Positions 15,350 to 51,656 of a stretch of 64,000 nt of DNA are shown here, one piece after another. The notes under the pieces were generated by a model. That model ran no database searches and was not told the DNA's origin. It saw only the letters and a list, made by a program, of their open reading frames with translations. Both the position numbers and the translations under genes were made by a program. Positions within the stretch are counted from its first letter, which is position 1. The number at the start of each line of letters is the position of its first letter. Source of the stretch: an uncultured Actinomycetota bacterium (lineage in GTDB: Bacteria > Actinomycetota > Actinomycetes > JAHEKZ01); assembly GCA_963743915.1 (NCBI GenBank), contig CAVURN010000001.1:320001-384000 (forward strand), in the 5' to 3' direction.

Positions 15350-15781
15350 TCAGGCGGGAGGTGCGCCGACCATGCCCGACTTGAAGGGGTCGCGCCGCGG
15401 GGGGTCACCGAGCTCGGCACGCGGGCACGTGTCCAGCGTCAGCCCCGCCCAGGTGAGGGCGTCGTCGACGAGCGACTCGACGCTCCAGCTGCTCTCGAGC
15501 CCGTACGGGGTGACCGTCACCTTGTAGATGGTGATCTGGTGGCGGTTGGGCGCGTCGTACATGACGGCGATGGAGCCGAGCAGTCGCGCGTTGCCGCGGG
15601 TGCCACCCATGCCGTCCCAGGGGCTGTCATAGCGCTGCCACAGTGACGAGGTCGCGTTCCAGACACCCCCCGAGCTGATGTCGAGCCGCTTCAGCTCCTC
15701 GAGCACGCGGTTGGCGGCGCGCTCGTCAAGGATGGCTGCTGGCCTGATGATGCGGACATCGTCCCGCGGTGCTACGCCCAT
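15350..15781 (-). CDS. Hypothetical protein (143 aa)
   Basis: GC-rich third codon positions, globular-looking sequence; ATG 7 nt after a sigma28-type -10 element. Confidence 0.8.
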   Translation of the reverse strand: MGVAPRDDVRIIRPAAILDERAANRVLEELKRLDISSGGVWNATSSLWQRYDSPWDGMGGTRGNARLLGSIAVMYDAPNRHQITIYKVTVTPYGLESSWSVESLVDDALTWAGLTLDTCPRAELGDPPRRDPFKSGMVGAPPA

Positions 15782-15788
15782 GGAGTGC

Positions 15789-15816
15789 CTATCGGGCGAA
15801 ACCGCCCGGAGGTTGA
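15789..15816 (-). promoter_or_regulatory. Sigma28 (FliA/WhiG)-type promoter, apparently leaderless
   Basis: Minus strand TCAAC-N15-CCCGATAG-N7-ATG. Confidence 0.65.
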
Positions 15817-15911
15817 GCCCCTGACTTCGTCGGCCCCCGATTTCCTCGCCAGAGCGCCACGATGCCCCGTCCTGCGGCGTGACTGTGGCGGTCTGGCGTG
15901 ACGCTCGGGGG

Positions 15912-16361
15912 TCATGGGCCGATGTTCCGGCACGGTCGGGTCCGCAGGTCGCGGACGTAGTCGTCCGGTGCCCCGGCGGCCTCGGCGGCGTCGGCCATGA
16001 TCCCGAGATAGCGGGCCGAGGGAAGACCCCCCTCGAAGGCGTTGAGCACGTAGAGCCAGGCGAGCTTGTCACCGTCGAGGGTCTGGATCCGGACCCGAAT
16101 CTTGTCGTAGACGCCGAGGGCGCCCTCCCAGACGTCCAACGTGCGCTCGTCGAGCTCGGTGAGGTCGTACAGCACGGTGAAGACCTGCGACGGCGCGTCC
16201 TCGACGACGGTCGCGAGAGCTCCCTCCCAGCCGAGGTCGGCCCCCCCGAAGGTGAGGCGCCAGCCGTCGAGCCAGCCCGTCCCGGCCATCGGGGAGTGGG
16301 GTGCGCGTTCGGCCATCTGCCGCGGGTCCATGTTGCTGCCGTACGCGGCGTAGAGGGCCAT
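15912..16361 (-). CDS. Gamma-glutamylcyclotransferase family protein
   Basis: LYAAYGSNM, WRLTFGG, LDVWEG, PSARYL; divergent from lpdA as in other actinomycetes. Confidence 0.9.
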   Translation of the reverse strand: MALYAAYGSNMDPRQMAERAPHSPMAGTGWLDGWRLTFGGADLGWEGALATVVEDAPSQVFTVLYDLTELDERTLDVWEGALGVYDKIRVRIQTLDGDKLAWLYVLNAFEGGLPSARYLGIMADAAEAAGAPDDYVRDLRTRPCRNIGP

Positions 16362-16422
16362 GGCGACGAGCGTAGGGGCGGTGCGTGGGGGATCGGCTGA
16401 ACTGTGCGCCAGAATGTCCGCC

Positions 16423-17796
16423 GTGGCGCGAATGGTGATCGTCGGCGGCGGCCCCGGGGGGTACGAGGCCGCGCTGGTGGCGTCCCAGGTGGGGGCCGAG
16501 GTCACGCTCGTCGACCGCGACGGGCTCGGCGGCTCGGCGGTCCTGACCGACGTGGTCCCCAGCAAGGCGCTGATCACCGTGGCCGACGTCATGGACGAGG
16601 TCACCGACTCACGGGCCCTCGGCGTCCGGTTCTCCGGTGACGTCGGTGTCGACCTGGCGGTCGTCAACGAGCGCCTGCGGGGCCTGGCGACGGCGCAGTC
16701 CGCCGACGTCGAGGCCCACCTGGCGAAGGACGGCGTGCGCGTGCTGCGCGGCGTGGGACGGTTGCGGGGGCCTGACACGGTGGTGGCCGAGCTGACCGAC
16801 GGTGGGACGGAGGTGCTGGACGCCGACGCGGTGCTCGTCGCCACGGGGGCGCATCCGCGAGAGCTCGAGACGGCCCGGCCGGACGGCGAGCGCATCCTGT
16901 CGTGGACCCAGCTGTACGACCTCACCGAGCTGCCTGAGCGGCTCGTCGTCGTGGGCTCAGGTGTCACCGGCGCCGAGTTCGCAGGTGCGTACCAGGCACT
17001 CGGCGCCCAGGTGACGCTGGTGTCGTCGCGCGACCGGGTGCTGCCCGGTGAGGACGCTGACGCGGCCGCGGTGCTCGAAGAGGTCTTCGCCCGGCGCGGC
17101 ATGACCGTGCTGTCCCGCTCACGGGCCGTGGCGGTGGAGCGCACGGCGGACGGCGTACGGGTGGAGCTGCAGGACGGCGGGAGCGTCGAGGGGTCACACG
17201 CGCTGATGGCGGTCGGGTCGGTGCCCAACACCACCGGTCTCGGACTCGAGGAGGCCGGTGTGGCGCTCGACGACCGCGGGTTCGTGGTCGTCGACCGGGT
17301 CTCCCGGACGAGCGCGCGTGGTGTGTACGCCGCCGGCGACTGCACCGGCGTGCTCATGCTGGCCTCGGTCGCCGCCATGCAGGGACGGATCGCCATGAAG
17401 CACGCCCTGGGCGAGGCCGTCCAGCCGCTCGACCTCTCGGTGGTCGCGAGCAACGTCTTCACCGACCCGGAGATCGCCACGGTGGGCGTGACGCAGGCCC
17501 AAGCGGACTCGGGCGAGATCGCCGTGGCGCAGGTCAAGCTGCCGCTGGCGACGAACGCCCGGGCCAAGATGCAGGACTTCCACGACGGCTTCGTGAAGCT
17601 GTTCTGCCGGGTCGGCACCGGGATCGTCGTCGGAGGGGTGGTGGTGGCCCCGCGGGCGAGCGAGCTGATCCACCCGGTGTCGCTCGCGGTGCGCCACGGG
17701 CTCAACGTCGACCAGGTGGCCGACGCCTTCACGGTCTACCCGTCGCTGTCGGGGTCGGTCGCAGAGGCCGCGCGCCAGCTCCACCTGCACAGCTGA
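16423..17796 (+). CDS. lpdA: NAD(P)H-quinone dehydrogenase (LpdA-type flavoprotein disulfide reductase homolog)
   Basis: IVGGGPGGYEAAL, VPSK, GSGVTGAEF, YAAGDCTG, FTVYPSLSGS. Confidence 0.9.
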   Translation: MARMVIVGGGPGGYEAALVASQVGAEVTLVDRDGLGGSAVLTDVVPSKALITVADVMDEVTDSRALGVRFSGDVGVDLAVVNERLRGLATAQSADVEAHLAKDGVRVLRGVGRLRGPDTVVAELTDGGTEVLDADAVLVATGAHPRELETARPDGERILSWTQLYDLTELPERLVVVGSGVTGAEFAGAYQALGAQVTLVSSRDRVLPGEDADAAAVLEEVFARRGMTVLSRSRAVAVERTADGVRVELQDGGSVEGSHALMAVGSVPNTTGLGLEEAGVALDDRGFVVVDRVSRTSARGVYAAGDCTGVLMLASVAAMQGRIAMKHALGEAVQPLDLSVVASNVFTDPEIATVGVTQAQADSGEIAVAQVKLPLATNARAKMQDFHDGFVKLFCRVGTGIVVGGVVVAPRASELIHPVSLAVRHGLNVDQVADAFTVYPSLSGSVAEAARQLHLHS

Positions 17797-17803
17797 CCCA
17801 CCG

Positions 17804-19272
17804 TCAGACCGGGGGCACCAGTGCCCCTGCTTCCAGCAGGCCGACCTGCTGCTCCAGCGCGCGGGCAACCCGAAGGAGCGTCGCCTCGGTGTTGGCCCGT
17901 CCACTGACCGCGAGGCCCACCGGCAGACCGTGCACGAATCCCATGGGCACACTGAGGATCGGGTAGCCGGCAACAGAGGGTGCGCTGGTGGAGTCGCCGA
18001 CGATGGGAGCGTCGCCCAGGACCAGGTCGTTCTTGATGGCGGGAGGGAACGCAGGCGCCACGAGGACGTCGAGCGAGTGGGCCCCCATGACGGCGTCCAT
18101 CCCGTGTCGCGGGCGTCGACCAGGTTGCGGGCGCGTGCCGAGCGGTACTCCTCGGAGTCGAGGTCGCCGAGTGAGTCGGCCTTCTCGAAGAACTCCTGCC
18201 CGAACCAGCGCAGCTCCTCCTCGGCGTGCTCGCGGTTGAACGCGATCACGTCGGTGAGGGTGCGTGGACCGCCCTCGGGCCGCCTCGCGAGGTAGACGTT
18301 GAGGTCGTGCTTGAGCTCATAGAGCAGCACGGTGAGCTCATCACCCCCCTCGACGCCCCCGGAGGCGTCGTAGGTCGGGATCTCCGGGAAGTCGACCGGG
18401 TCGACGAGGGTGGCGCCCGCGGCGGCCAGTGCCGACAGCGCTGCCTCTGCCACGGCGTCCGTGCCCGCGTGGTGCCCGAAGTGCTTGCGCACGACGCCGA
18501 CCCTGAGCCCTTGGACTCCCGTGTCGCACGCGGCGAGGTAGGTGTCGGAGCCGGTCATCGCGTCCAGGAAGGCGGCGGTGACCCGGACGCTCACCGCCAT
18601 CGGCCCGGGGGAGTCCTGGCTGTGCGAGATCGGCACGATTCCGGCAGCGGCCAGCAGGCCGACCGTGGGCTTGAGGCCCACGACACCGTTGTAGCTGGCG
18701 GGGCAGATGATCGAGCCGTCCGTCTCGGTGCCGACTCCCAGGGGGGCGAGCCCGGCGGCCAGGGCGGCACCCGTCCCCGACGACGACCCGCCGGCACTGC
18801 GTGTGGGGTCCCACGGGTTGCGCGTGAGGCCCCCGCGTGCGCTCCAGCCACTCGTCGAGTGCGGTGAGCGGATGTTGGCCCACTCGCTGAGGTTGGTCTT
18901 TCCGAGGACCACCAGCCCGGCCTCGCGGAGCCGCGCGACGAGCGGCGCGTCCTGCAGCGGACGCGTCCCGGCGAGCGCGAGTGACCCCGCCGTCGTGAGC
19001 ATGCCGTCCGCGGTGTCGATGTTGTCCTTGACCGCGACCGCCAAGCCGTGCAACGCGCCCCGGACGCGGCCGTCACGCAGCTCGGCGTCCCGCTCCATGG
19101 CGATGGACATCGCGTCCGGGTTGAGCTCGATGAACGCGTTGAGCTCGGGGCCGTTCCCGTCCAGGGCTCCGCGTCGCGTCGTCAGGTGGTCGACCTGCTC
19201 GGCGCTCGACAGGTGCCGCTGGGGCAGCTCGGTGTCGCTGAAGAGGTTCGCGGACGGCAGGCGCTCGGTCAT
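17804..19272 (-). CDS. Amidase-signature family amidase (frameshifted near 18102)
   Basis: VKDNI, GGSSSG, ETDGSI; C-terminus (MDAVMGAHSLDVLVAP...AGYPILSVPMG) lies in another frame. Confidence 0.88.
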
Positions 19273-19329
19273 GACGCCACTCTGGCAGATCAGCCGCACA
19301 GGACATCGGGTCTGCGAGAGGGTGGCTCC

Positions 19330-20553
19330 ATGACGGTGGCAGTGGTGGGAGCCGGCTTTGCCGGACTGATGGCAGCGTGGACTCTCCAGCAGTCAGGGCG
19401 GGACGTCGTGGTGCTGGAGGCCCGCGACCGGGTCGGGGGGAGGGTGTGGTCGCAGGAGCTCGTCCACGGCGACCCCCGGACGGTGATCGAGCGCGGTGCC
19501 GAGTTCGTGCTCAGCGGCTACGACGTGATGCGCGCGATGCTCGACACCTGTGGTCTCGAGCTCGCCCCGATGGGGATGTCCTACTACGTGCGGGAGCCGC
19601 GCGGCGTCGACACCACCCACGAACGCGTGGCCGAGTGCGCGTCGATGGTCGCCCTGGCTGCCCGGGGTCGAGGGACCGATATCTCGCTGGCGCAGCTCCT
19701 CGACGAGGTCGCGCCCCAGGTGGACGCCGCGGCGCTGGCGGCGTTCCGGTCGCGGATCGAGGTGACGAACGCGGCCCCCGCCAAACGCCTCGCCGCAGCG
19801 GCGGCCGAGGACGTCACGATGGCCTTCGAGGCGAGGCCGTCGTACCGCGTCGCCGGGGGGAACCAGCGGCTCGCCCGCGAGATGGCGGCCCGGCTCGGGG
19901 GCGCGCTGCACCTCGGGGAGGCCGTCCGCAGCGTCGGGTGGGACAGCGCCGGCTGCCGGGTCGCGACCGACCGAGGTGAGGTCTCGGCCGATGCCGTGGT
20001 GCTGGCGACGCCGATGGCGGTCACCCGCGAGCTCACCTTCGACCCACCGCTGCCGGGCTGGAAGGTGGACGCCTGGCGGCGCGCAGGAACCGGACAGGCA
20101 GCCAAGCTGCACGTGCCGTTGCGCGAGGGGGCCGGTGCGGTCCCGTGGTCCGCCGTGCAGAGCGTCCCCGAACGGTTCTGGACCTGGACGGCCACCGACG
20201 AGTCGGGGCAGGTGCAGCCCACGCTGCACTGCTTCTCGGGGTCGACCCCGGCGCTCGAACGGCTGCGGGTCGCCGAGGGTTCGTCGACGTGGGCAGGGCG
20301 AGCGGCGTCGCTTCGACCTGATCTGGCGCTCGACGTCGACCGCGCCGTCGTCACGACCTGGGAGGACGATCCGTGGGCCGGAGAGGCCTACACGGCGCTC
20401 ACGGTGGGAACGGGCTCCGACGACGATGAGCTGTTGCGGCGGCCCGTCGGGCCCTTGTCCTTTGCGGGCGAGCACACCGCAGGGGACCTGGCCGGCTTGA
20501 TGGAGGGCGCCCTGCGCTCCGGCGAGCGTGCGGCCCGGGAGCTGCTCAGCTGA
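19330..20553 (+). CDS. Flavin monoamine oxidase family protein
   Basis: [31 protein letters not shown]. Confidence 0.9.
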
Positions 20554-22309: not shown

Positions 22310-22367
22310 GTCGACTCCTCGGGACGGACTCGCCCACGGGCGCCTCGCCGGCGGGCTCCGGCGCAGT

Positions 22368-23036: not shown

Positions 23037-23052
23037 CAGAAGTGCCGTGCCA

Positions 23053-23270
23053 TCACCGTGGCAGGGTCGAGAGCCGCCAGGCGTCCGGACCTGGGCGGAG
23101 TGACGGCCGAACCTGTCGCGACCGCGACGCCCACGCCGAACGGCGTGACGCCGCAACCCCGTCCGCGGACCGGCTTCGCGTGGTGAGGACGGCGACGAGC
23201 GCGGCGACCTCGTCCGGAGCGGGATCCCCGCGCACCACACGGAGCAGCGGGGCGGCAGGCTCGGCTGCGC

Positions 23271-23274
<4 letters not shown>
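23053..23274 (-). CDS. Acyl-CoA carboxylase epsilon subunit
   Basis: [18 protein letters not shown]...W...PGPDAWR; directly after the beta subunit. Confidence 0.88.
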
Positions 23275-24896
<1,622 letters not shown>

Positions 24897-24941
24897 GGCG
24901 GTCAGCGTAGCGACGTGGGGCGGAGGCACACCGCCGGCCCG

Positions 24942-24969
24942 TCAAGTCGAGGTCTCGCCGAGTCGATCA
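24942..24969 (+). promoter_or_regulatory. Sigma28-type promoter of DGC 1
   Basis: TCAAG-N15-GTCGATCA. Confidence 0.6.
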
Positions 24970-24989
24970 TTACCACGGAGAATGCGGTG

Positions 24990-26651
24990 ATGACCCAGGC
25001 ACCGAGGCCGGACCGGCCCCGGACAGATCCGCGCGCCGACCGCGCGCGCGGTGAGGCACGCCTCCGCGCCCTCAGCGACGTCGGCCGAGCGGGCGTCGGC
25101 TTCCCCAAGCCCGAGGCCACCCAGCGGATCATCCTCGCCGCCATGCGTGCGGCCGAGGCCGACGCCGCGTCCCTCGGCGTGTGGGACCCACGCCGTCAGG
25201 TGCTGCGCGCCGTCCTGAACGTCGGCGACCTGGCCGAGTGGGAGGAGGAGTGGCCGGAGGACGAGGTGTACGAGGCGGACCAGAGCACCTGGCTCGCCGG
25301 CATGAGCGAGGGGCGGCTCGGCGCGGTGCTCTGCCTCGACGATCCCGATCTCGCGCCGGACGACCGCGAGTACCTGCTGTCGCTCGGCAAGCACAGCTCG
25401 ATCAGTGTCCCGCTGCTGTACGCCGGCCAGTGGTGGGGCGAGCTCTTCGTGTCGCGTGCCGATCCCGCGAGGCCGTTCACCGTGGACGACCTCGACTGGG
25501 TGTCGGCGGTCGCGGCCCAGGTGAGCGCGGCACTCGAGGGCGTCGACCACGTGGCGCGGGTCGAGCAGCTGGCCCAGACCGACTCCATGACCGGCCTCGC
25601 GAACCGGCGTGCCCTTGACCAGTGGCTCGACTCCGCGATGGTCGCGCTCCGTGCCGAAGGGAGGCCCATCGGTCTGTGCGTGGTCGACCTCAACGGGCTC
25701 AAGCGCATCAACGACGACCAGGGTCACGACGCCGGAGACCGAGTGCTGCAGCAGCTCGGGGACATCCTGCTCGACGCCTCCGCCGAGTTCGAGCACACCA
25801 TCGTCGCCCGACTCGGAGGTGACGAGTTCTGCATCGCGGTGAGCGGTCCCGACGCCGCCAGGATCGTCGAGGCCGCCCACGAGGTCTGTCGGCACGGCTG
25901 GGCGGCACTGCCGCACGGGATCGCCGCCGGCGTGGTGTCGACCACGGACGCGATCGGCGCCGTGGACGCGTCGGCGCGGCTGCTCCGGCTCGCTGACGCG
26001 GCGCAGTACCGCGCGAAGCGGCTGCATTCCCGAGCGCCGGTCGTCGCCGGTCGCCCCCTGCCCCCGGAGCTGGCGTCGACCGTGACCGTCGACCAGGACG
26101 ACGCTGCGCCCGACCGAAGGCTGCTCCGAGGCCGCGAGGAGTCGACGCTCGGCCACCTGACCGACGCCGCCCTTCGAGCTCTCGACCAGGCGCGGCACGA
26201 GCCGGTGCGCACCCGTCTGGCGATGGTGGCCGACCTGGTCACCCATCACGTCGACGCCATCGGTTGGTGGCTGTCGCTGGTCCCGGCGGGAGCCGAGGCG
26301 CTCAACACGGTCGACTTCGCCCTCTATCGACGTCCTCCTGACATCGACCCCGAGGAGCTGCGCCGCGAGCTTTCGGGAGTCTTCGCCCTGGTGACCTACC
26401 CGCAGACCCACCTGGCGCTGGCCGGAACCTCGTACACCGTGACCACGACCGACGTCGCCGCTGACCCCGCCGAGCTGGCCATCCTCGACGGACTCGGAGC
26501 CTCCGGGGTCGTGGCGGCGGGTGGCCGGGACGCCGAGGGTGACGGCTGGCTGGTCGAGGTCTTCCTCGACGAGCTGAGCGGCGCCGGTCAGGAGATGGCC
26601 GGCGTGCTGCGGCTGTTCGTGCTGGCCGCCCTGCATCCGCTCCCGCTCTAG
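24990..26651 (+). CDS. Diguanylate cyclase 1 (GAF-GGDEF-GAF-like)
   Basis: GAF (VPLLYAGQWWGEL), TDSMTGLANRR, DLNGLKRINDDQGHDAGD, ARLGGDEF, ADAAQYRAK, C-terminal extension of about 170 aa. Confidence 0.92.
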   Translation: MTQAPRPDRPRTDPRADRARGEARLRALSDVGRAGVGFPKPEATQRIILAAMRAAEADAASLGVWDPRRQVLRAVLNVGDLAEWEEEWPEDEVYEADQSTWLAGMSEGRLGAVLCLDDPDLAPDDREYLLSLGKHSSISVPLLYAGQWWGELFVSRADPARPFTVDDLDWVSAVAAQVSAALEGVDHVARVEQLAQTDSMTGLANRRALDQWLDSAMVALRAEGRPIGLCVVDLNGLKRINDDQGHDAGDRVLQQLGDILLDASAEFEHTIVARLGGDEFCIAVSGPDAARIVEAAHEVCRHGWAALPHGIAAGVVSTTDAIGAVDASARLLRLADAAQYRAKRLHSRAPVVAGRPLPPELASTVTVDQDDAAPDRRLLRGREESTLGHLTDAALRALDQARHEPVRTRLAMVADLVTHHVDAIGWWLSLVPAGAEALNTVDFALYRRPPDIDPEELRRELSGVFALVTYPQTHLALAGTSYTVTTTDVAADPAELAILDGLGASGVVAAGGRDAEGDGWLVEVFLDELSGAGQEMAGVLRLFVLAALHPLPL

Positions 26652-26681: not shown

Positions 26682-26709
26682 TCAAGCCACCCCCTCGCGC
26701 CCCCGATAC
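26682..26709 (+). promoter_or_regulatory. Sigma28-type promoter of DGC 2
   Basis: TCAAG-N15-CCCGATAC. Confidence 0.68.
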
Positions 26710-26747: not shown

Positions 26748-28382
26748 ATGGCTCCGGCACCGGAGCTGGCCGTCCCATGGGACGAGCCGGCGGTTGCCGC
26801 GCGCTTTCGCGGCCTTGCAGACGTCGCCCGCGTGGCGACGGCCACCTCCGGCACCGATCTGCTCCGCCGGGTGTCACTCGCGGCGATGCACGCACTGGGC
26901 GGCGCATCGGTGTCGCTGAGCGTGTCTGAGCCCGAGAGGGCAGGGTTGCGGTGCGTCCTCAACGACGGCGAGCTCGGCCCGGGCGAGGTGCCGGAGCCGG
27001 TGGACGAGTTCTACAGCCTCGCGGACTACGGTCCCGCCCTGCAGATCCTCGAGAGCCAGCGCGCGTTCCACGTCTCGTGTGCGGACCAGGGCGCCTACGC
27101 CGACCTGCTGCGGCGGCTCGGCAAGGGCAGCTGCATCGTGGCGCCGATCCCCTTGGACGGTCGGGTGTGGGGCGAGCTGTTCATCACCAGGCGGGTGGAC
27201 CAGACGACGTTCGGTCCTTCTGACACCGACTTCGCGGTGGCCGTTGCCGCCCAGGTGGGGGCGGCGATCGCCACCTCCGAGCACCTCGGCCGCGCGGAGG
27301 CCCTCGCGCACACCGACCCGCTGACCGGTCTGGCCAACCGGTTGGCCGTGGAGAGGTGGTTCGACGCGGCCATGGCCGACCACCGTGAGAACGGCACGAC
27401 GGTGGCCCTGCTCGTGTGCGACGTGAACGGACTCAAGCTCGTCAACGACCGCCATGGCCACGAGGCAGGCGACCGGCTGCTGCGTGACGTGGCCGGAATC
27501 CTGAGGGAGACCAGTTCGCGCATGCTCGCAGGCGCGCTCCTCGCCCGGCTCGGGGGCGACGAGTTCGCGGTCGTGGTGGCGGGTCGTGCCCCGGACGACG
27601 TGGTCACCTTTGCCGAGGAGCTCAGCCTGCAGGCCTGGCGACGGCTGCCGCACGGCGTCGCAGTGGGGGTGGCGAGCACCGGCGACGCGGTCGGCGCCAT
27701 CGACAACGGGGAGCGCCTCTTCCGGCTGGCCGACGCGGCGCAGTACCGGGCCAAGCGCACCAGCTCCCGGTTCCCCGTGGTGGCGGGCCGTGCAGTTCCG
27801 GTCGAAGCCGCGTCCTCCCTGGCCGCCGAACCGACGCGGCACAGTGAGGACCGACGGCTGCGACGGGGGGACCAGCACTCCGCGCCCCTGCAGCTGCTCG
27901 ACGCCGCCCTCAGAGCCCTGGACGAGGAGCACGGCCAGTCCCCGCAGCTGCGTCTGGGTCTGGTCGCGGACCTGGTCAGTCATCACCTGGACGCCGTCGG
28001 ATGGTGGCTGTCGCGCGTGGGAGCCGGCGAGACGGAGGTCACGACGGTCGACTTCGCGGTCTACCGGGCCCTGCCCGGGCTGACGCCCGAGGAGCTCGCG
28101 ACCGAGATCGGGGCAAGCTTCCCGGTGGACCGGTACCCCTCGACCGCCCAGGCGCTACGGGGAGGCGCCTTCGCGATCAGGGCCGACGATCCGGAGGCTG
28201 ACGTCGCGGAGCTGGCGATCCTCGACGACCTGTCCGCCGCCGCGGTCGTCGGCGCAGGAGGGCAGGACGAGGACGGGCAGGGCTGGTTGGTCGAGGTCTA
28301 CACCGATGCACTGAGCGGGTCCGAGCGCGACCTCGCCATCTTGCTGCGGGTGCTCGTGGCCATCGCCCTGAGTCGACCCTGA
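26748..28382 (+). CDS. Diguanylate cyclase 2 (GAF-GGDEF-GAF-like)
   Basis: APIPLDGRVWGEL, TDPLTGLANR, DVNGLKLVNDRHGHEAGD, ARLGGDEF, ADAAQYRAK. Confidence 0.92.
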   Translation: MAPAPELAVPWDEPAVAARFRGLADVARVATATSGTDLLRRVSLAAMHALGGASVSLSVSEPERAGLRCVLNDGELGPGEVPEPVDEFYSLADYGPALQILESQRAFHVSCADQGAYADLLRRLGKGSCIVAPIPLDGRVWGELFITRRVDQTTFGPSDTDFAVAVAAQVGAAIATSEHLGRAEALAHTDPLTGLANRLAVERWFDAAMADHRENGTTVALLVCDVNGLKLVNDRHGHEAGDRLLRDVAGILRETSSRMLAGALLARLGGDEFAVVVAGRAPDDVVTFAEELSLQAWRRLPHGVAVGVASTGDAVGAIDNGERLFRLADAAQYRAKRTSSRFPVVAGRAVPVEAASSLAAEPTRHSEDRRLRRGDQHSAPLQLLDAALRALDEEHGQSPQLRLGLVADLVSHHLDAVGWWLSRVGAGETEVTTVDFAVYRALPGLTPEELATEIGASFPVDRYPSTAQALRGGAFAIRADDPEADVAELAILDDLSAAAVVGAGGQDEDGQGWLVEVYTDALSGSERDLAILLRVLVAIALSRP

Positions 28383-28427: not shown

Positions 28428-28456
28428 TCAAGCACCCGCCCCACGCACGCCGATAG
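28428..28456 (+). promoter_or_regulatory. Sigma28-type promoter of DGC 3
   Basis: TCAAG-N16-GCCGATAG. Confidence 0.72.
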
Positions 28457-28477: not shown

Positions 28478-30157
28478 ATGCCGGTAGGCCATGACGCGCG
28501 CCCAGAGTCTGGGCGTCGCGAGCACGTCGCCACGCGCCTGGGCGCGCTGGCTGACATCGCGCGCGCTGCGTGGGCAGGCAGCCAGGTCGAGCTGCTGCGG
28601 CAGGCGGGGGAGTCGGCGCTGCAGGCGCTCGATGCGGCGTCGGCCTCGATCTCCCGCTGGGACCCCGATCTCGGGCAGGTACGCACCCTCCTCAACCTGG
28701 GGCAGCTCGGACCCGAGGAGCAGCCGGAGCCGGCGGACGAGGTCTACCGGGCCGACAGCTACGTCCACCTGCAGACGATGGTCCAGGACCTCACGGGATG
28801 GTCCACGAACGTCGATGTCGGAAGCCCCTCGGACGCCGACGTGCAGCTGCTGCGCGCCCTGGACAAGCACTGCAGCGTGGGAGCCCCCATCCCCCTCGAG
28901 GGACGGATCTGGGGCGAGCTGTTCCTCAGCCGGCGTGCCGACCAGCCATGCTTCGACGACACCGACGTGGATCTCGCACTCGTGGTGGCCGCGCAGATCG
29001 GTGCCGCACTGGCCACGGCGGACCACCTCGACACCGTCGACCGGATGGCGCGCACCGACCCGCTCACCGGGCTCGGCAACCGTCGCGCGGTCGACGAGGC
29101 GCTCGACGCCGCGATGGCGCGCCACCGCACCGAGCAGGTCGATGTGGCCCTGGTGGTCTGCGACCTCAACGGGCTCAAGCGGATCAACGACGAGCAGGGC
29201 CATGACGCCGGCGACCGCGCACTCGTCCGGTTCGCGGGCATGCTCTCGAACGTGGCCGCGGGCCTGGAGGGCGCGCTGGCAGCCCGGCTCGGTGGTGACG
29301 AGTTCTGCATCGTGGTCTCCGACATCGACGCCGACACGGTGGTCGAGGCAGCCGAGACGCTGTGCCGACGCGTGCTCCGGTCACCCTTGGAGGGGGTGTC
29401 CTGCGGCGTCGCCTGCACCGCGGACGACGTCGGCGACGTGGACTCGACCGGACGGCTCTTCCGCCTCGCCGACGCCGCGCAGTACCGGGCCAAGCGGAGC
29501 CGCGCCACCGTTCCCGTCGTGGCCGGACGTGGGCTGCCTCCCGGCGTCACCGGCTACGAGTCGACCAACGCCCCCAGTGCCGCAGGGGAGCGCCGGCTGT
29601 TCCGTGGTCGGGACCTGTCCGAGACCGCCCGACTCCTGCGCGCAGGGCTGGACCTGCTGGACGACTCGCGCGACCGCACCGTCGAGGACCGGTTGGTGCA
29701 GGTGGCCGAGCTGGTCTCCGAGCAGGTCCACCCACTGGCGTGGTGGCTGTCCGGGGTCGACCACGAGGCGGGCCTCGTGACCACCCTCCGCCACGCGATC
29801 CACCGGACCCCCTCCCGTCCCGGTGAGGAGCTCTCGTCCGGGATCGGCAACCAGTACCGCCTCGTGGACTACCCGCTCACCGCCCACGCGGTGCAGGGCC
29901 ACGCGGTGGCCCTGCACTCCGGCGACCCCGACGTCGACCCGGCCGAGCTGGCCATGCTCGACGGCATGGGGGCCATGAGCCTGCTGATGGCAGGGGTGCG
30001 CGACCCCTCCGGAGCCGGCTGGCTGCTCGAGATCGTGGGGGACGCCATGAGCTCGCCCAGCGCCGACCTCGGCATGCCGTTGCGGGCGCTGATGACGGCC
30101 GCCGCACTCGAGGCAGCAGGTGCGCGGTCCGATGCCGGACGACTCGCCGCCCGCTAG
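28478..30157 (+). CDS. Diguanylate cyclase 3 (GAF-GGDEF-GAF-like)
   Basis: APIPLEGRIWGEL, TDPLTGLGNRR, DLNGLKRINDEQGHDAGD, ARLGGDEF, ADAAQYRAK. Confidence 0.92.
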   Translation: MPVGHDARPESGRREHVATRLGALADIARAAWAGSQVELLRQAGESALQALDAASASISRWDPDLGQVRTLLNLGQLGPEEQPEPADEVYRADSYVHLQTMVQDLTGWSTNVDVGSPSDADVQLLRALDKHCSVGAPIPLEGRIWGELFLSRRADQPCFDDTDVDLALVVAAQIGAALATADHLDTVDRMARTDPLTGLGNRRAVDEALDAAMARHRTEQVDVALVVCDLNGLKRINDEQGHDAGDRALVRFAGMLSNVAAGLEGALAARLGGDEFCIVVSDIDADTVVEAAETLCRRVLRSPLEGVSCGVACTADDVGDVDSTGRLFRLADAAQYRAKRSRATVPVVAGRGLPPGVTGYESTNAPSAAGERRLFRGRDLSETARLLRAGLDLLDDSRDRTVEDRLVQVAELVSEQVHPLAWWLSGVDHEAGLVTTLRHAIHRTPSRPGEELSSGIGNQYRLVDYPLTAHAVQGHAVALHSGDPDVDPAELAMLDGMGAMSLLMAGVRDPSGAGWLLEIVGDAMSSPSADLGMPLRALMTAAALEAAGARSDAGRLAAR

Positions 30158-44965: not shown

Positions 44966-44981
44966 CCTTGGGGAGGGCTCG

Positions 44982-46439: not shown

Positions 46440-46481
46440 CGAGTTCCTTGGGGTGCGGAGAGCCGTCAGGATACGGACAGG

Positions 46482-47216
46482 TCAGGTCAGGGTCCGAACC
46501 GCCTCGGGGACGGGCACCCCGTCGGGGACGGGAGCTGTGACAGCCGTCACGTGCTCGGCATTCCAGTGTTCGACGCAGCGGAGGGCATCGGGGTTCCGCA
46601 CCCACACGACGCTGGCACCGACGGCGAGCGGTGCCAACCACTCGCGGACGACGGCGTCCAGGTCGGGGTCCGGCCCGAGTGCGGCGACCCGGTCGGTCGG
46701 TACCAGCCCGAGGGCGGACGCCTGCTGCTCGGCACGGCCCCCCCAGCCGCTCGACGGAACCTGCGGCCCGACCACCTGGTCGGGCATGGAGCGCGCCTCG
46801 ACCGTGAAGTCGTGGACGAGCACCGGCAGGGGGTCCAGGAACGGCGCTGCCATGGGGGCGAGGGAGCAGGCGATGACCTCGTCGGCATCCGGGAGCGCTG
46901 CGAGCCCGTCCGGACCCACGACCGCCACGTCGGACGACCCGCCGGACCGCCCGTCGACGATCTCCGCGCCCACCGCGTCCGCGGCGAGCACCCAGACGGC
47001 GAGCAGCCAGTGACGAGGCAGGTGGAGGGACACACGGGCACGCGGCCCCACTCCGCAGGTCTGGGTGAGGACGTTCACCGTCTTGGCCACCCAGTTGACG
47101 AGTGTGGTCGTGGAGAGCTCGACCCGCTCGCCCGTGGCGTCGTCGTAGAAGGTCAGACGCGGGCTCGCAGGATCGTCGGACAACGCGCGGCGCAGATGCT
47201 CTTGGCACGAGGTCAC
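46482..47216 (-). CDS. TIGR03089 family protein
   Basis: PRLTFYDDATGERVELS..TLVNWVAKT, LPRHW; adjacent to an LCP gene. Confidence 0.88.
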   Translation of the reverse strand: MTSCQEHLRRALSDDPASPRLTFYDDATGERVELSTTTLVNWVAKTVNVLTQTCGVGPRARVSLHLPRHWLLAVWVLAADAVGAEIVDGRSGGSSDVAVVGPDGLAALPDADEVIACSLAPMAAPFLDPLPVLVHDFTVEARSMPDQVVGPQVPSSGWGGRAEQQASALGLVPTDRVAALGPDPDLDAVVREWLAPLAVGASVVWVRNPDALRCVEHWNAEHVTAVTAPVPDGVPVPEAVRTLT

Positions 47217-47239
47217 GGCGTCTAGGGTAGGGACTCGTC

Positions 47240-47267
47240 TCCAGTCGGGCCCACGCCCGGCCGATGG
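47240..47267 (+). promoter_or_regulatory. Sigma28-type promoter of the amidase gene
   Basis: TCCAG-N15-GCCGATGG. Confidence 0.55.
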
Positions 47268-47342
47268 TGTGCGGGGGAGCACGTCCGGCGTGGGCGGGCT
47301 CCCTCACACGCTCACCGACTTCCCCCGGAGAGGTTCGTCGTC

Positions 47343-49988
47343 GTGTCCTTCCCGCGCTTCACCCGACCAACCGGTGCTCTTCTGGCCGTCGTCCTCGTCG
47401 TGCCCACGGCGGTGCTGGCCCCCACGGTGGTGGTGAGTCGGCCGACGCCGCACCCGGTCTCCCCCGACGTGCAGCAGCTGCGCCTGCGTGGCGTGGACGG
47501 GTCGGTCGCCGAGGCCAGGTCCTCGGCGCCGGCGGTCCTGACGCGAGCCTGGAAGTCGCTGCCAGGCGAGTCGGCGGCCACGGCTCGGCGCGCCGCCGAA
47601 CGCCCCCCCGTGGTCCTCAGCGAGCCGATGGCCACCGACGGGTACCGGATGCTCGGCGTCACGTGGCGTGGCGCCGCCCCCACCGCCACCGGTGCGGTCG
47701 TGGTGTCGGCACGGACCCGCACCGAGGGGCACTGGACCGACTGGTTCGCGCTGGACCCGATGGTGGACGCCGGTACCGAGGCGTCGCCGAACGGGCGCTT
47801 CGGCACCGTTCCCTACTGGGCCGGTGACTCCGACGGCATCCAGGTGCGGGTCGACGGGGTCGGCGACGCCCGACCGCGCGGGGTGCGCGTCGACCTCATC
47901 GAGCCCGGCACCTCCGACGCCGACGCCCTCGTCACCGACCCGTGGTCCGGGTCTGCGGCCATGGCGTCCACCAACCGCCCGCCGATCGTGACGCGCGCGG
48001 AGTGGGGGGCCAACGAGTCGCTCCGCGACAAGCGCCTGGAGAACAGCCCCACGGTCGAGGTGATGTTCGTGCACCACACCGCCGGCAGCAACAGCTACAC
48101 CAGGAGCGAGAGCCCGGCCGTGGTGCGAGGGCTGTACAGCTACTACGTGAACACGCTGGACTACGCCGACCTCGGCTACAACTTCCTGGTCGACAAGTAC
48201 GGGACGATCTACGAGGGGCGTGCCGGCAGCATCAGCAAGCCGGTGCGCTCGGCCGCGACCGGCGGCTTCAACACCAACACCATGGCGGTCGTGGCCATGG
48301 GCAACTTCATGACCGCCCCGGCGTCCGACGAGATGGTGCGCGCGATCGCGAAGATCCTGGCCTACCGGCTCTCGTCGTTCCACCGCGATCCGTTCGACCG
48401 GAAGGTGCTGCGGGCCGAGATCGGGTCGTCGCGGTACGACGCAGGCGAGCGCGCGAGGTTCCGGGTGGTCTCCGGTCATCGCGACGCCGGTTTCACCGCC
48501 TGCCCGGGGAACAACCTCTACCAGCAGCTGCCGACCATCAGGCGCCTCACCGCCAAGTACATGGGGTCGAGCCTGGTGGAGCCCTCCATCTCGGACCGCA
48601 ACGTTCCGCTCGGCTCCTCGGTCGACGTCCGTGCGCAGGTCATGCAGGAGCAGGGGTGGGCCCTGACGGTCCGCGACCTGTGCAGCGGTGAGGTGGTGCG
48701 CAGGGTCAAGGGTCGGGCGTCGCCGACGAGCCCCATCCGGGCCACCTGGGACGGGTCGACCGATGCGGGGTCCAAGGCTCCACCGGGGCGCTACCGACTC
48801 ACGCTCACGAGCAGCGGCGACGGCACCTCGGCCTGGCCCTGGGGGACGACCGTCCTCGTCGGTGCCGGTGGTCAGGCCGACCCACCGACCGTCGGCTCGC
48901 TGCCCAGCCCCGTGGGCGGGACCTACGTGCCGCTCCGTCCGCGCCCCCTGCTCTCCAGCACCGAAGGCGTCGGCATCCGGCGCCCCCTGCTGCTCGGCCC
49001 AGACCGCAGGCTCGACGTCCAGGTGCTCGGGCGGGCCGGGGTCCCGGCATCGGACGTCTCGGCCGTGGCGCTGTCGGTGCAGGCCAACTGTGCGAGCAGG
49101 GCGACGAGCATCTCGGTCGGCCCCGACTCGGTGCGGGGGACCGGCGCTCGCGTGCTCTCGCTGAAGCCGCACCGCGCGGTCCGGGGATTCACCCTGGTCC
49201 GGGTCGGTCCCTCCGGTGAGGTGACTTTCCGCAACCGGTCCGGCGCGGTCGCACTCGAGGCCGAGGTCGTCGGCTACGTCAGCACGTCAGGTGCGGGGGG
49301 TGCGCTCACTCCGCTTCGCCGTCAGGTTCTCGCCGCCGCAAGTCCGGTGTCGGTCAGTCCCACACCGGTCACTCTCGACGTCGCAGGGCAGGCGGGTGTT
49401 CCCGCCGACGCCCGCGCCGTGGTGCTCTCCGTGCGGCGCGGCGGCGCCTCCCCCGTCGAGGCGGTGTGGGCCTGGCCGAGCGGGTCGGACCGACCCGTCG
49501 CGCCGAGCTGGCGGCGAGCCAGCGGGTCCGGCTCGGTCGCGCAGGTGGTGGTGCCTCTCGGCGCCGACGGCAGGATGCGCGTCGCTGCCGACAGCGCCGG
49601 CGCCGTCTCCCTCGACGTCGCGGGGTACGTGGCAGCAGGCGACGACCGGGCCTTCCACCCGCTCGTCCCGCAGCGGCTCACCAAGGACGGCCTGCGGCTC
49701 GACCGGCGCGGGGCCACGACGGTGAGCGTCGCAGGCCGGGCTGGGGTGCCGAGATCCGCCACCTCGGTGGTCGTGGCGCTCTCCGGCTCCCGCAGCACCG
49801 GTCCGGCTCGGGTGCAGCTGTGGCCGCGGGGGGCGACGGCACCGAGCACGCCAGATCTCGTGGTTCCGCGCAAGGACTCGCGCGAGACGGTCTCGGTCGT
49901 GCGGCTGGGCAGGGGCGGCGACCTGCTGCTCAAGGCCCGGGACGCGCGGGTGCGCGCCGAGCTGCAGGTGCTCGGCTGGATCGGCTAG
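47343..49988 (+). CDS. Secreted N-acetylmuramoyl-L-alanine amidase (PGRP/Amidase_2) with FlgD-Ig-like domain and three C-terminal repeats
   Basis: Signal peptide; IVTRAEWGA, VHHTAG, DLGYNFLVD, IYEGR, SGHRD, TACPG; ATWDG...PPGRY; repeated V.G(R/Q)AGVP. Confidence 0.9.
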   Translation: MSFPRFTRPTGALLAVVLVVPTAVLAPTVVVSRPTPHPVSPDVQQLRLRGVDGSVAEARSSAPAVLTRAWKSLPGESAATARRAAERPPVVLSEPMATDGYRMLGVTWRGAAPTATGAVVVSARTRTEGHWTDWFALDPMVDAGTEASPNGRFGTVPYWAGDSDGIQVRVDGVGDARPRGVRVDLIEPGTSDADALVTDPWSGSAAMASTNRPPIVTRAEWGANESLRDKRLENSPTVEVMFVHHTAGSNSYTRSESPAVVRGLYSYYVNTLDYADLGYNFLVDKYGTIYEGRAGSISKPVRSAATGGFNTNTMAVVAMGNFMTAPASDEMVRAIAKILAYRLSSFHRDPFDRKVLRAEIGSSRYDAGERARFRVVSGHRDAGFTACPGNNLYQQLPTIRRLTAKYMGSSLVEPSISDRNVPLGSSVDVRAQVMQEQGWALTVRDLCSGEVVRRVKGRASPTSPIRATWDGSTDAGSKAPPGRYRLTLTSSGDGTSAWPWGTTVLVGAGGQADPPTVGSLPSPVGGTYVPLRPRPLLSSTEGVGIRRPLLLGPDRRLDVQVLGRAGVPASDVSAVALSVQANCASRATSISVGPDSVRGTGARVLSLKPHRAVRGFTLVRVGPSGEVTFRNRSGAVALEAEVVGYVSTSGAGGALTPLRRQVLAAASPVSVSPTPVTLDVAGQAGVPADARAVVLSVRRGGASPVEAVWAWPSGSDRPVAPSWRRASGSGSVAQVVVPLGADGRMRVAADSAGAVSLDVAGYVAAGDDRAFHPLVPQRLTKDGLRLDRRGATTVSVAGRAGVPRSATSVVVALSGSRSTGPARVQLWPRGATAPSTPDLVVPRKDSRETVSVVRLGRGGDLLLKARDARVRAELQVLGWIG

Positions 49989-50036
49989 CGCGAATCCGCC
50001 CGCGCAGCCGCAAACCCCCAGGTCAGGGGTGAGCGC

Positions 50037-50065
50037 CTAAGGTGCTCCCGGTCCGCTGCCGAGAC
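50037..50065 (+). promoter_or_regulatory. Sigma28-type promoter of the SpoIID gene, apparently leaderless
   Basis: CTAAG-N16-GCCGAGAC-N7-GTG. Confidence 0.55.
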
Positions 50066-50072
50066 CCCCTGT

Positions 50073-51656
50073 GTGACGGGTGTGACGCAGGGGACGCCGG
50101 GTGCCAGGACGCGCCGCGTCGCCCCGACCCTGATGACCGTGCTGGTGCTGGCGGCGCTGGTCGCCGGCCTGGTGGGCCTGGTGGTGCCCCAGCCGGCACG
50201 GGCCACGTCCGCCGCCGAGGTCTACCCGGTGCCCGGGAGCGGCACCTACGAGCTGTCCGGACTGGGATTCGGGCACGGCATCGGGATGTCCCAGTTCGGC
50301 GCCGAAGGCATGGGTCGGCTCGGCAAGTCGTACCGCCAGATCCTGAAGTTCTACTACCCGGGCACCCGGTTCGCCGAGGTGGACCGTTCCCGGAAGATCA
50401 GGGTGGGGCTGTCCGGCCTCATGCACAGCACACCGCAGGGAACGGCCGTCGTCGTGCAGCCGCGGGAGGGGCTCCGTGCCAGCCACGCCGGCGAGGAGAT
50501 CCTCCTGCCCGGCAAGGTCGGTGGCGAGAAGGTCAGGAGCTACCGGGTCGTGCGCCACGGCGACGACCTCGCCGTCTGGGCAGTGTCGTCGGCTGACCGC
50601 GTCAAGGTCGAAGGTCGCCTGGGCCGGACGGTGACCTGGAACACCGACCCCGCTCCCGGCCGGAGCCGCTTCACGGTGTCCCCGGCCTCGGGCGCCGACC
50701 GGACCTACCGGGGAGAGCTCGACGTCACGCTCGGCGCGTCGTCGGTCCTTGCCGTCAACCGGCTGCTCCTGCAGGACTACCTCCGGTCCGTGGTCTCCTC
50801 GGAGGTGCCCTCGTCCTGGACCGACGCGGCGCTGCGCGCACAGTCGGTGGCTGCGCGGAGCTATGCGCTGCTGGCGCAGGAGAACGCGCGCGCGGCGAAT
50901 CGCGCGTACGACATCTGCGACACGACCTACTGCCAGGTGTACTCGCCCGTCGCCGGTGAGACGTCACCCGAGGTGGCCGCGGTGAAGGCGACGGCCGGGA
51001 TCTACCTCAAGAGCGCAGGACAGCCGGTCTTCGCCATGTTCAGCTCGGCGAACGGCGGCTACTCCGTCTCGGGCAGTCGTGGCTACCTCGTCGCCCAACC
51101 GGATCCGTACGACGGGGTGGTCACCGGCTCCGCGAACTGGGGGCACAGCTGGACGACGTCGGTCACCGCCGGCGCGATCGAGCGCGCCTGGCCACAGATC
51201 GGCACGCTGCAGAAGCTGAAGGTGCTGGAGCGCGACGGCAACGGTGCCTGGGGTGGTCGGGTCGTCTCCGTCGGACTCGTCGGGAGCCGCAGCACCGTCT
51301 CGGTCTCCGCCGACAGCTTCCGGTGGGCGACCGGTCTGAAGAGCACCTGGTGGACGGTGACCAACGCTGACGGCTCCGCCGCGGCACCGGTGACGAACGT
51401 CCGCGTCAAGCCCGGGGACCGGTCCGCGCAGGTGCGCTGGCGCGCGCCGGCCACCGAGCGAAAAGTCCGTGGCTACCGGGTCACGGTGTCGGGCACCGGC
51501 GACTCGTACCGCGTCGACCGTGACACCCGTCGTGTCCGCGTCCGCGGGTTGACCAACGGCGAGGAGTACCGGGCTCGGGTTGCTCCCCTCTACCGCTCCG
51601 GTCCTGGCCCCAAGACCTCCTCGTCGGCGTTCGTCCCGACTTCGGACTACTCCTAG
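50073..51656 (+). CDS. SpoIID/LytB domain peptidoglycan hydrolase with fibronectin type III domain
   Basis: GFGHGIGMSQFGA, ILKFYYPGT, YLRSVVSSEVP, AQSVAARSY, CDTTYCQVY; C-terminal W.AP...GY.V...GLTNG.EY. Confidence 0.9.
   Translation: MTGVTQGTPGARTRRVAPTLMTVLVLAALVAGLVGLVVPQPARATSAAEVYPVPGSGTYELSGLGFGHGIGMSQFGAEGMGRLGKSYRQILKFYYPGTRFAEVDRSRKIRVGLSGLMHSTPQGTAVVVQPREGLRASHAGEEILLPGKVGGEKVRSYRVVRHGDDLAVWAVSSADRVKVEGRLGRTVTWNTDPAPGRSRFTVSPASGADRTYRGELDVTLGASSVLAVNRLLLQDYLRSVVSSEVPSSWTDAALRAQSVAARSYALLAQENARAANRAYDICDTTYCQVYSPVAGETSPEVAAVKATAGIYLKSAGQPVFAMFSSANGGYSVSGSRGYLVAQPDPYDGVVTGSANWGHSWTTSVTAGAIERAWPQIGTLQKLKVLERDGNGAWGGRVVSVGLVGSRSTVSVSADSFRWATGLKSTWWTVTNADGSAAAPVTNVRVKPGDRSAQVRWRAPATERKVRGYRVTVSGTGDSYRVDRDTRRVRVRGLTNGEEYRARVAPLYRSGPGPKTSSSAFVPTSDYS

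Follow-up and report, generated by a model that had tools for sequence, protein, structure and literature searches.

Do the paired boxes that stand before six genes in a stretch of DNA from an uncultured actinobacterium belong to one regulon, and which sigma factor would read them? The stretch (hereafter the window) comprises 64,000 nucleotides (G000:C1:320001-384000) of a genome assembly of 2.92 Mb with 70% G+C, which consists of five contigs and is estimated to be 90% complete. The six genes encode three tandem predicted diguanylate cyclases (DGC1 to DGC3), an N-acetylmuramoyl-L-alanine amidase, a SpoIID-domain protein and a protein of 143 residues without a known family (P0001). A preliminary description of the window had proposed that they form a sigma-28 (WhiG/FliA) regulon that links the synthesis of cyclic di-GMP (c-di-GMP) to hydrolysis of the cell wall. 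We consider it likely that the six sites are indeed part of the regulon of WhiG, the sole sigma-28-family factor of this genome, that the wider regulon includes pilus, chemotaxis, wall and c-di-GMP genes, and that the circuit may work as a negative feedback or a pulse.

The box pairs in the window and across the genome

All six box pairs lie where they had been reported, in the correct orientation and facing the genes named above (Table 1), and two of the octamers do end exactly 7 nucleotides (nt) before a start codon, namely those of the 143-residue gene (ATG at 15781) and of the SpoIID gene (GTG at 50073). The sites are unequal: three are strong (DGC2, DGC3 and the 143-residue gene) and three are weak but recur in relatives (DGC1, amidase and SpoIID). 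The motif is identical to the consensus published for WhiG2, T(A/C)AA-N16-GCCGATAA (Denis et al. 2026, bioRxiv 10.64898/2026.01.14.699351), which the three strong sites match with an intact CGA; the DGC1 site fits the rule of that preprint as well, with T(A/C)AA, N16, one mismatch in the -10 box and the CGA intact. The amidase and SpoIID sites follow the sigma-28 consensus only loosely, with one -35 mismatch each. Sites were scored with a matrix built from 12 non-coding CCGATA sites of the same genome; in control windows of 150 nt a score of at least 10 was reached in 2 of 314 and a score of at least 12 in 1 of 314.

The frequency of the motif is far above that of shuffled DNA, in the window as well as in the whole genome, for which genes were called with a rough caller based on codon-position G+C (GC3) that yielded about 81% coding and 18.6% non-coding sequence. 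Within the window, the expected number of TCAAG-N15/16-SYCGAT matches is 0.07 and the observed number 3, a count reached by 0 of 100 shuffles. Among non-coding CCGATA sequences of the genome, 12 of 86 have TCAA at an offset of -22 to -20, and the other 97 offsets (-60 to +39) total 10, whereas only 1 of 92 coding CCGATA sequences has TCAA at that distance. Similarly, non-coding DNA has 19 cases of TCAAG at a distance of 20-22 nt before CCGAT, as against 0-4 at any other offset, with no peak in coding DNA. When the literature consensus was entered independently of the genome, with the 1653 non-coding segments in 100 dinucleotide shuffles as background, T[AC]AA-N15-17-GCCGATA was found 7 times (shuffle mean 0.12), T[AC]AA-N15-17-NCCGAT 35 times (mean 6.2) and T[AC]AA-N16-GCCGA 23 times (4.1 in shuffles), and no shuffle attained any of these counts. 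Fourteen matches in the genome have a matrix score of at least 20, and 12 of them are non-coding.

At ten non-coding sites genome-wide a start codon that opens a long frame lies exactly 7 nt after the octamer, and these include the sites of the 143-residue gene, SpoIID, a lytic transglycosylase (SLT), an L,D-transpeptidase (YkuD), a gene with GGDEF and EAL domains, and cheW. This is the geometry that would be expected of leaderless mRNAs if transcription began at the usual sigma-28 start distance, and since the ATG of the 143-residue gene starts 7 nt after its CCCGATAG octamer, its mRNA is probably leaderless.

The motif also recurs upstream of orthologues of all six genes. We compared 40 relatives (13 of the same genus, 6 further members of the same family and 21 from other families) by protein search, after which the DNA upstream of each match was inspected and the best site per window picked. 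The DGC3 site scores 19.0-25.1 in 10 of 10 genus orthologues, with divergent spacers, and 5 of 5 genus orthologues of DGC2 keep CTCAAG with CCGAT or CCGAC (scores 13.2-16.5). For DGC1, all eight of the same-genus orthologues shown have T[TC][CT]AG-N15-G[CT]CGA at the same place by eye, and their matrix scores are low (0.4-12.2). The amidase site reads TCTCCAG...GGCCGATGG in 8 of 8 genus orthologues (10.9-11.6); in other genera a related pair, CTCCAG, TCAGG or TCAAG with GCCGAT, is present in 5 of 7, with scores of 14.2 (G014), 11.7 (G018), 12.6 (G019), 17.6 (G017) and 10.6 (G035, TCAAG...GCCGATCC), the site being weak in G016 (6.0) and absent from G015. For SpoIID, 9 of 11 genus orthologues have CT[CT]AGGT and GCCGA[GAC]A with unchanged spacing, and in G011 and G012 the -35 box is TTACAGT or TTTCAGT; scores range from 6.1 to 13.5 across the 11, and in other genera of the family the boxes are weak or unclear. 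The 143-residue gene, whose boxes are the most widely kept, is treated below.

WhiG, RsiG and the predicted regulon

The genome has a single FliA/WhiG gene, as a sigma-28 regulon would lead one to expect. It scores 284.5 bits with TIGR02479 (cut-off 189.6), the next sigma matches reaching at most 112.9 bits, and it is a WhiG rather than a FliA: the WhiG equivalog model NF004935 gives 432.5 bits (cut-off 343), and the solved Streptomyces venezuelae WhiG (6pfj_A) aligns with 398 bits as against 171.5 bits for the best FliA. The best matrix score upstream of whiG itself is only 5.5, and autoregulation of whiG is thus unsupported.

A search for its anti-sigma factor found an RsiG homologue of 191 residues (PF22802, 48.7 bits, cut-off 27). 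Its top four matches among solved structures are all RsiG chains (7lq4, 6pfj, 7lq3 and 7lq2, E-values 2.5e-4 to 9.2e-3), and residues 25-174 of the query align with 7-166 of the S. venezuelae chain. A search of all frames with the exact RsiG motif returned three open reading frames (ORFs), two of them antisense to real genes, and only the one at C3:34002 was retained. The motif of RsiG that binds c-di-GMP is E(X)3S(X)2R(X)3Q(X)3D (PMC8325347). Its first copy is exact here and is kept in all 9 of the sequences aligned, one of which has H in place of Q; in the second copy (residues ~146-162) the E and R are present in 9 of 9 and the S in 8 of 9 (T in one), and H stands for Q, a replacement described as tolerated in motif 1 (PMC8325347). 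It seems plausible, by homology, that this RsiG also binds c-di-GMP. Among the 41 genomes searched, RsiG was found in 34 and WhiG in 36. The rsiG gene has boxes of its own, CTCAAG-N15-GACGATGC (GACGAT), with a GTG start 5 nt after the octamer, and in relatives from several families 21 of 23 such sites score at least 9.5, so that WhiG, judging by the motif, would transcribe the gene of its own anti-sigma factor.

The three cyclases, which are 42-46% identical to one another, have an intact GG(D/E)EF active-site motif, with GGDEF invariant in all three, and are presumably active enzymes; an RxxD inhibitory site, expected five residues before GGDEF, is missing. Their GAF domains would imply a further input. 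All three have in common a C-terminal region of about 200 residues without a Pfam match, with the invariant stretches GWWLS, ELA.LD and GWL.E.

Candidate targets outside the window were named by annotating with Pfam the genes that follow the best-scoring non-coding sites (Table 1). Five of the 12 GGDEF genes of the genome have boxes. Four sites fall in a type IV pilus cluster at C2:106-119 kb (before pilB, before a pilT-like gene, in the pilin block and before pilM), where Pfam recognises T2SSE with MshEN, T2SSE, T2SSF, N_methyl pilins, Peptidase_A24, PilM_2 and PilN. Flagellin (PF00669) and FlhA (PF00771) were not found in this assembly of about 90% completeness. Of the two kinds of motility genes named in the preliminary description, therefore, the pilus genes are present and motif-bearing and the flagellar ones were not found. 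A further site heads a chemosensory cluster (C5:220600-239000 was examined) with cheW, a protein of 336 residues without a family, three tandem chemoreceptor paralogues, a 1315-residue fusion of chemoreceptor (MCP), Hpt, kinase (CheA), CheW and receiver domains, and a receiver-GAF protein; since no flagellar genes were found, this cluster probably serves the pili or a c-di-GMP output. The three chemoreceptor paralogues have identical Pfam scores for the signalling domain. A five-fold repeated 27-nt match at C5:226-234 kb lies antisense to these tandem paralogues and was discarded as a gene repeat. Among the wall enzymes, the SLT boxes are present in 17 of 17 relatives (scores 8.2-18.4), and the boxes of a 138-residue gene, a second small unannotated family that stands first in an operon with an NlpC/P60 hydrolase gene, in 19 of 19 (8.1-19.5).

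Two more sites are uncertain, one 286 nt before a Rieske oxygenase gene (C1:7689) and one 275 nt before a NUDIX gene (C1:280094), and five were dropped because the calls place no plausible gene downstream (C3:311938, C2:494484, C5:36048, C2:705737 and C2:707067).

Put together, the proposed circuit would run as follows. The WhiG holoenzyme would read (G)CTCAA(G/C) as the -35 box and (G/C)CCGATA(G/C) as the -10 box, with 16 +/- 1 nt from TCAA to the octamer, and would start transcription about 7 nt after the octamer, a position that coincides with the start codon in at least ten genes and would there give leaderless mRNAs. By homology with Streptomyces and Rubrobacter, WhiG would be held inactive by RsiG only when RsiG carries c-di-GMP, and low c-di-GMP would make RsiG free WhiG. 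Free WhiG, if the motif is a guide, would transcribe the pilus, chemosensory and wall-remodelling genes together with the three cyclases and rsiG. The predicted members are the three GAF-GGDEF cyclases, another two genes with GGDEF domains and rsiG itself; the cluster for type IV pili, one more secretion-type ATPase, cheW and chemoreceptors; the wall-remodelling enzymes, namely the amidase, SpoIID, SLT, the NlpC/P60 operon and the L,D-transpeptidase; and small conserved proteins, above all the one of 143 residues. The part of the wall enzymes may be to open up the thick peptidoglycan so that pili can be assembled, or to let cells separate. Rising c-di-GMP and RsiG would then recapture WhiG, resulting in negative feedback or a pulse.

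In the window the amidase gene is followed by the SpoIID gene, and the two are adjacent on the same contig in family relatives as well. Between the amidase boxes and the GTG lies a leader that is conserved in the genus, although the sequence of its hairpin differs between the window genome and its relatives. No Rfam family was found in the whole window at the gathering score, nor in 47150-47400 at E<=1; the conserved segment could be a regulatory leader.

Table 1. Genes and candidate WhiG-type promoter sites; plain positions refer to the window, positions with a contig name (C1, C2, C3, C5) to the genome assembly
Feature	Position	Strand	Details
Site of 143-residue gene, strong WhiG-type promoter (predicted)	15816-15789	-	-35 (GC)TCAAC, N15, -10 CCCGATAG; matrix 19.9
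P0001, conserved 143-residue protein, no known family	15350-15781	-	no same-strand neighbour; convergent with gene 14921-15331
DGC1 site, weak WhiG-type promoter candidate	24942-24969	+	TCAAG-N15-GTCGATCA; 20 nt before ATG; matrix 4.7
DGC1	24990-26651	+	Pfam GGDEF 89.7 bits, GAF 40.2 bits
DGC2 site, strong WhiG-type promoter (predicted)	26682-26709	+	TCAAG-N15-CCCGATAC; matrix 22.3
DGC2	26748-28382	+	GAF-GGDEF paralogue, 46% identical to DGC1; GGDEF 90.3 bits
DGC3 site, predicted promoter, strongest site of the window	28428-28456	+	(GC)TCAAG-N16-GCCGATAG; matrix 26.1
DGC3	28478-30157	+	GAF-GGDEF paralogue, 42% identical to DGC1; GGDEF 103.8 bits
Amidase site, weak WhiG-type promoter candidate	47240-47267	+	TCCAG-N15-GCCGATGG; 75 nt before GTG; matrix 10.1
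Amidase 5' leader	47268-47342	+	75 nt; hairpin, then conserved CCACCGACTTCCCCC...GGAGAGG before GTG (9 genus members, by eye)
N-acetylmuramoyl-L-alanine amidase (Amidase_2/PGRP type)	47343-49988	+	881 residues; PF01510 50.4 bits; FlgD-type Ig domain PF13860 30.4 bits
SpoIID site, weak WhiG-type promoter candidate	50037-50065	+	C-TAAG-N16-GCCGAGAC; GTG 7 nt after octamer; matrix 9.5
SpoIID/LytB-domain protein	50073-51656	+	527 residues; SpoIID 81.1 bits; C-terminal fn3 40.6; TIGR02669 170.3 (cut-off 83.3)
WhiG gene	C1:725323-726000		
RsiG gene	C3:34002-34577		191 residues
PilB site	C2:106372		type IV pilus cluster
PilT-like ATPase site	C2:108180		type IV pilus cluster
Site inside pilin block	C2:112559		type IV pilus cluster
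PilM site	C2:117159		type IV pilus cluster
Second secretion-type T2SSE ATPase site	C1:518099		
cheW site	C5:235869		head of chemosensory cluster C5:223-236 kb
Further chemoreceptor site	C5:294958		
Further chemoreceptor site	C3:236642		
GGDEF-EAL gene site	C3:283130		c-di-GMP enzyme
Double-GGDEF gene site	C1:872661		c-di-GMP enzyme
GAF protein site	C5:451894		
L,D-transpeptidase YkuD site	C3:551247		wall enzyme
Lytic transglycosylase SLT site	C2:205464		wall enzyme
Operon site, 138-residue gene then NlpC/P60 gene	C3:358687/357550		stretch C3:357190-360603

A small conserved protein behind a strong site

The protein of 143 residues is the member about which annotation says least. P0001 has no Pfam match at E<=1 and no NCBIfam match at E<=0.01, and its 180 homologues, all from metagenomes or metagenome-assembled genomes, are all unnamed or called hypothetical. 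AlphaFold2 predicts an alpha/beta fold (mean pLDDT 74.7), for which there was no match in the PDB at E<=0.001 (the best Foldseek E-value being 0.064); the best Z of a wide VIA-align search, 5.5, falls within the range that the tool rates as common, and the best protein-atlas feature scores, 0.76 and 0.75, are leads only. A resemblance to PilZ was considered and rejected: RxxxR (residues 6-10) and DxSxxG (34-39) resemble the PilZ motifs, but R6 and S36 are not conserved in the family alignment and there is no Pfam PilZ match.

Its sequence is under a constraint that is unusually strong for a small protein without a family. It is 94-98% identical in 11 of the 13 same-genus genomes (the other two gave paralogue-level matches only), as compared with 59-66% for the amidase and 61-65% for SLT (both full-length), 66-69% for SpoIID, 69-72% for DGC1 and 73-81% for RsiG, and an alignment of 33 sequences with 63-93% identity has 45 invariant columns. 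A paralogue with 33% identity is encoded at C2:424970-425338 on the plus strand and is also found in most relatives, with no TCAA box seen before it.

The boxes are conserved along with the protein. All 16 same-family relatives keep (G/A/C)CTCAAC and an octamer of the form [CT][CA]CGAT... with a spacer that varies, the CGAT octamer lying 4-5 nt before the ATG by block count. A wider survey of public genome records covered 80 loci, 79 of which could be examined: in 75 of the 79, CT[CA]AA[CGT]-N13-15-NNCGANNN is present with a start codon 6-8 nt behind it (at exactly 7 nt in 68), and the same pattern was found in 0 of 310 control windows. The distribution of the protein is nested in that of the sigma factor and its partner: of the 21 genomes that belong to other families, 17 gave a match to WhiG, 14 to RsiG and 12 to the 143-residue protein, and all 12 also have RsiG and WhiG; this tally includes two unpublished genomes, G025 and G033, in which WhiG but neither of the other two was found (leaving 15, 14 and 12 of 19 without them), and its cut-off of E<=1e-5 for the 143-residue protein may admit paralogues.

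As to its function we favour, with low confidence, a regulator or effector that acts in the cytoplasm as part of the pilus and c-di-GMP circuit. One may go further and suppose that it represents an unstudied family which nearly always belongs to the WhiG/RsiG circuit across a broad clade of uncultured actinomycetes, possibly a new effector or regulator that links c-di-GMP to pilus assembly or opening of the wall, and that WhiG, by driving rsiG and three cyclases, sets up a double negative loop with a possible self-limiting pulse of pilus and wall-hydrolase expression. We put this forward as a tentative idea, which as a whole is more doubtful than the regulon on which it builds.

Upstream of the gene the calls at 15912-17796 conflict. 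A minus-strand ORF of 606 residues has an AIG2/GGACT Pfam match only in its last ~150 residues (~15912-16400), and a plus-strand ORF overlapping it at 16414-17796 has the better coding score, so that there is probably a short AIG2-like gene beside the promoter of the 143-residue gene.

Competing readings and known circuits

Several points weigh against the proposed WhiG regulon. The three low-scoring sites (4.7, 9.5 and 10.1) fail the stricter published rules: the -35 mismatches of the amidase and SpoIID sites are of a kind that the preprint rule forbids, and the -10 box of SpoIID has G for T. Matrix scores are partly circular because the matrix was trained on CCGATA sites of the same genome, a circularity to which the TCAA/CCGATA offset test and the literature-pattern shuffle test are not subject, and both the term non-coding and the distances to genes are approximate, since the gene calls come from a GC3-based caller. 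Kin genomes are not independent, and some conservation within the genus is expected without selection, although conservation by mere kinship is disfavoured because spacers vary and there are cross-family cases. The second RsiG motif reads E..S..R...H...A, and no more than 4 of the 9 sequences aligned have the final acidic residue. The feedback could have either net sign, since the cyclases have GAF domains, whose ligand would be a further input, and the GGDEF-EAL member could lower c-di-GMP, and the missing flagellar genes count as not found, no more, because the assembly is only about 90% complete. A run search on the locus listed no run on record as RNA; of the sampled words of the locus, 6-7% were seen in each of two sediment runs and 26% in one unlabelled run, all three being available as contigs, in which transcript starts do not show.

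Could it be, then, that only the strong sites (DGC2, DGC3, the 143-residue gene and strong sites elsewhere) are WhiG promoters, while the boxes of DGC1, the amidase and SpoIID are read by another sigma factor or kept as leader structure or operator, in which case the link between WhiG and the wall hydrolases of the window would not be real? Apart from the low scores, this is suggested by TCCAG and CTAAG as -35 boxes and GCCGAGAC as -10 box, which deviate from the WhiG2 consensus, by the amidase -10 box of the genus relatives, CCGATGG, which by eye pairs with a CCATCGG further down the leader, and by the gap of 85 nt between the amidase gene and SpoIID, across which transcription from the former might continue. 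Nevertheless, box spacing stays constant while the spacers diverge, the amidase site comes nearer to the consensus in other genera (as in G017 and G035), and the window genome keeps the amidase box even though it has no complementary CCATCGG. The 7-nt distance from octamer to start at SpoIID is common to nine other non-coding sites, and other wall enzymes (SLT and the NlpC/P60 operon) have better, conserved sites. We therefore hold this narrower regulon to be unlikely. The proposal of a sigma-28 regulon came through those of its refuting checks that were run and is supported by the presence of WhiG and RsiG, by the enrichment and by the conservation in orthologues, whereas for DGC1, the amidase and SpoIID it is weak and backed mainly by conservation.

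A more radical alternative is that the motif is a transcription-factor site, or that a different sigma factor reads it, and that its likeness to sigma-28 promoters is coincidental. The genome does have other sigma-70-family genes (six matches), and what ties WhiG to the sites is so far their sequence, but a promoter accounts better than an operator for the two boxes, for the spacing between them and for their constant distance from the start codon; the boxes match the consensus that ChIP-seq and the mapping of start sites gave for WhiG in other actinobacteria; the kinds of targets (pili, chemoreceptors, and diguanylate cyclase or phosphodiesterase (DGC/PDE) genes) match published WhiG regulons; and the 143-residue gene was found only in genomes that also have WhiG. 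Coincidence of this sort appears very improbable. Finally, chance in G+C-rich sequence could be invoked, since the loose form CTCA-N17-18-NNCGA[TGC] is not above shuffles (182 against a shuffle mean of 191.6) and many matches with a 14-nt spacer fall within genes. The specific motif, in contrast, is rejected as a chance pattern by the window shuffles, the offset test and the literature-pattern shuffles, and by the difference between the 143-residue loci and the control windows (75/79 as opposed to 0/310); we regard this explanation as refuted and assign it practically no weight.

Accepting WhiG as the probable reader of all six sites, one may ask how much of the circuit is new. The suggestion that the wiring might be undescribed does not hold, because WhiG promoters before DGC/PDE genes, with feedback, have already been published for Rubrobacter (PMC8325347). 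The circuit as such is known from other actinobacteria and holds nothing surprising to specialists; what novelty remains is that of the extra targets and of the 143-residue family. What is gained is the extension of a published design, a c-di-GMP-gated sigma-28 factor that governs pili, chemosensing and the enzymes of its own signal, to a lineage known only from metagenomes, with rsiG, peptidoglycan-remodelling enzymes and two small conserved proteins as added candidate components. The 143-residue family is the most useful lead, being compact, extremely conserved and probably leaderless, and its promoter might be used as a marker of WhiG activity.

Among the closest known systems is the (RsiG)2-(c-di-GMP)2-WhiG switch of Rubrobacter radiotolerans, a non-flagellated, non-sporulating actinobacterium, in which a sigma-28-type consensus likewise precedes type IV pilus and DGC/PDE genes; of its 12 mapped WhiG promoters 3 lie in the pilus cluster and 5 before DGC/PDE genes, and its authors note that the enzymes which produce and break down the signal of the switch may themselves be under its control (Schumacher et al. 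2021, PMC8325347). There are differences: RsiG here has the long twin-helix form (191 residues) instead of the small homodimeric one of Rubrobacter (PMC8325347), the -35 box is mostly TCAA rather than TAAA, and the predicted targets extend to rsiG, chemoreceptors, cheW, five wall-remodelling enzymes and the 143-residue family. The start sites of the Rubrobacter promoters are mapped, whereas the promoters described here are predictions from DNA sequence. In passages of the text of Schumacher et al. and in the text of its PNAS supplement, neither wall hydrolases, nor rsiG, chemoreceptors or cheW as WhiG targets, nor the 143- and 138-residue families appear.

In the predicted WhiG2 regulons of Denis et al. 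(bioRxiv 10.64898/2026.01.14.699351), no class of targets is as widespread as the DGC/PDE genes (307 of them in eight families), and feedback loops were deduced; chemotaxis and type IV pilus targets occur in several families, and WhiG2 co-occurs with RsiG. That survey deals with genera that have named representatives, in contrast to the present lineage, which is known only from metagenome-assembled genomes. The terms "peptidoglycan", "cell wall" and "amidase" are absent from its main text, although its target tables S4-S6 may list wall enzymes, rsiG or the 143-residue family; a literature search for WhiG together with type IV pili and peptidoglycan hydrolases returned nothing relevant. The sigma factor of S. 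venezuelae is orthologous to the one described here and its RsiG aligns as well. The Streptomyces WhiG regulon, which consists of three targets (whiH, whiI and vnz_15005), is devoted to sporulation, with DGC/PDE genes hardly ever among its members (bioRxiv 10.64898/2026.01.14.699351).

For the coupling to wall enzymes there is a parallel in SigD of Bacillus subtilis, a single sigma-28 factor that co-expresses the motility apparatus, chemoreceptors and vegetative autolysins (PMC3865298, PMC5200910). SigD serves flagella and is checked by FlgM, whereas here the apparatus would be a type IV pilus, the anti-sigma factor would be armed by c-di-GMP, and flagellar genes were not found. The enteric sigma-28 factor FliA transcribes the gene of its own anti-sigma factor, flgM, and FlgM leaves the cell by secretion through the hook-basal body of the flagellum. 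A sigma factor that transcribes the gene of its anti-sigma factor is also what we propose for WhiG and rsiG, with the difference that RsiG would be controlled by c-di-GMP.

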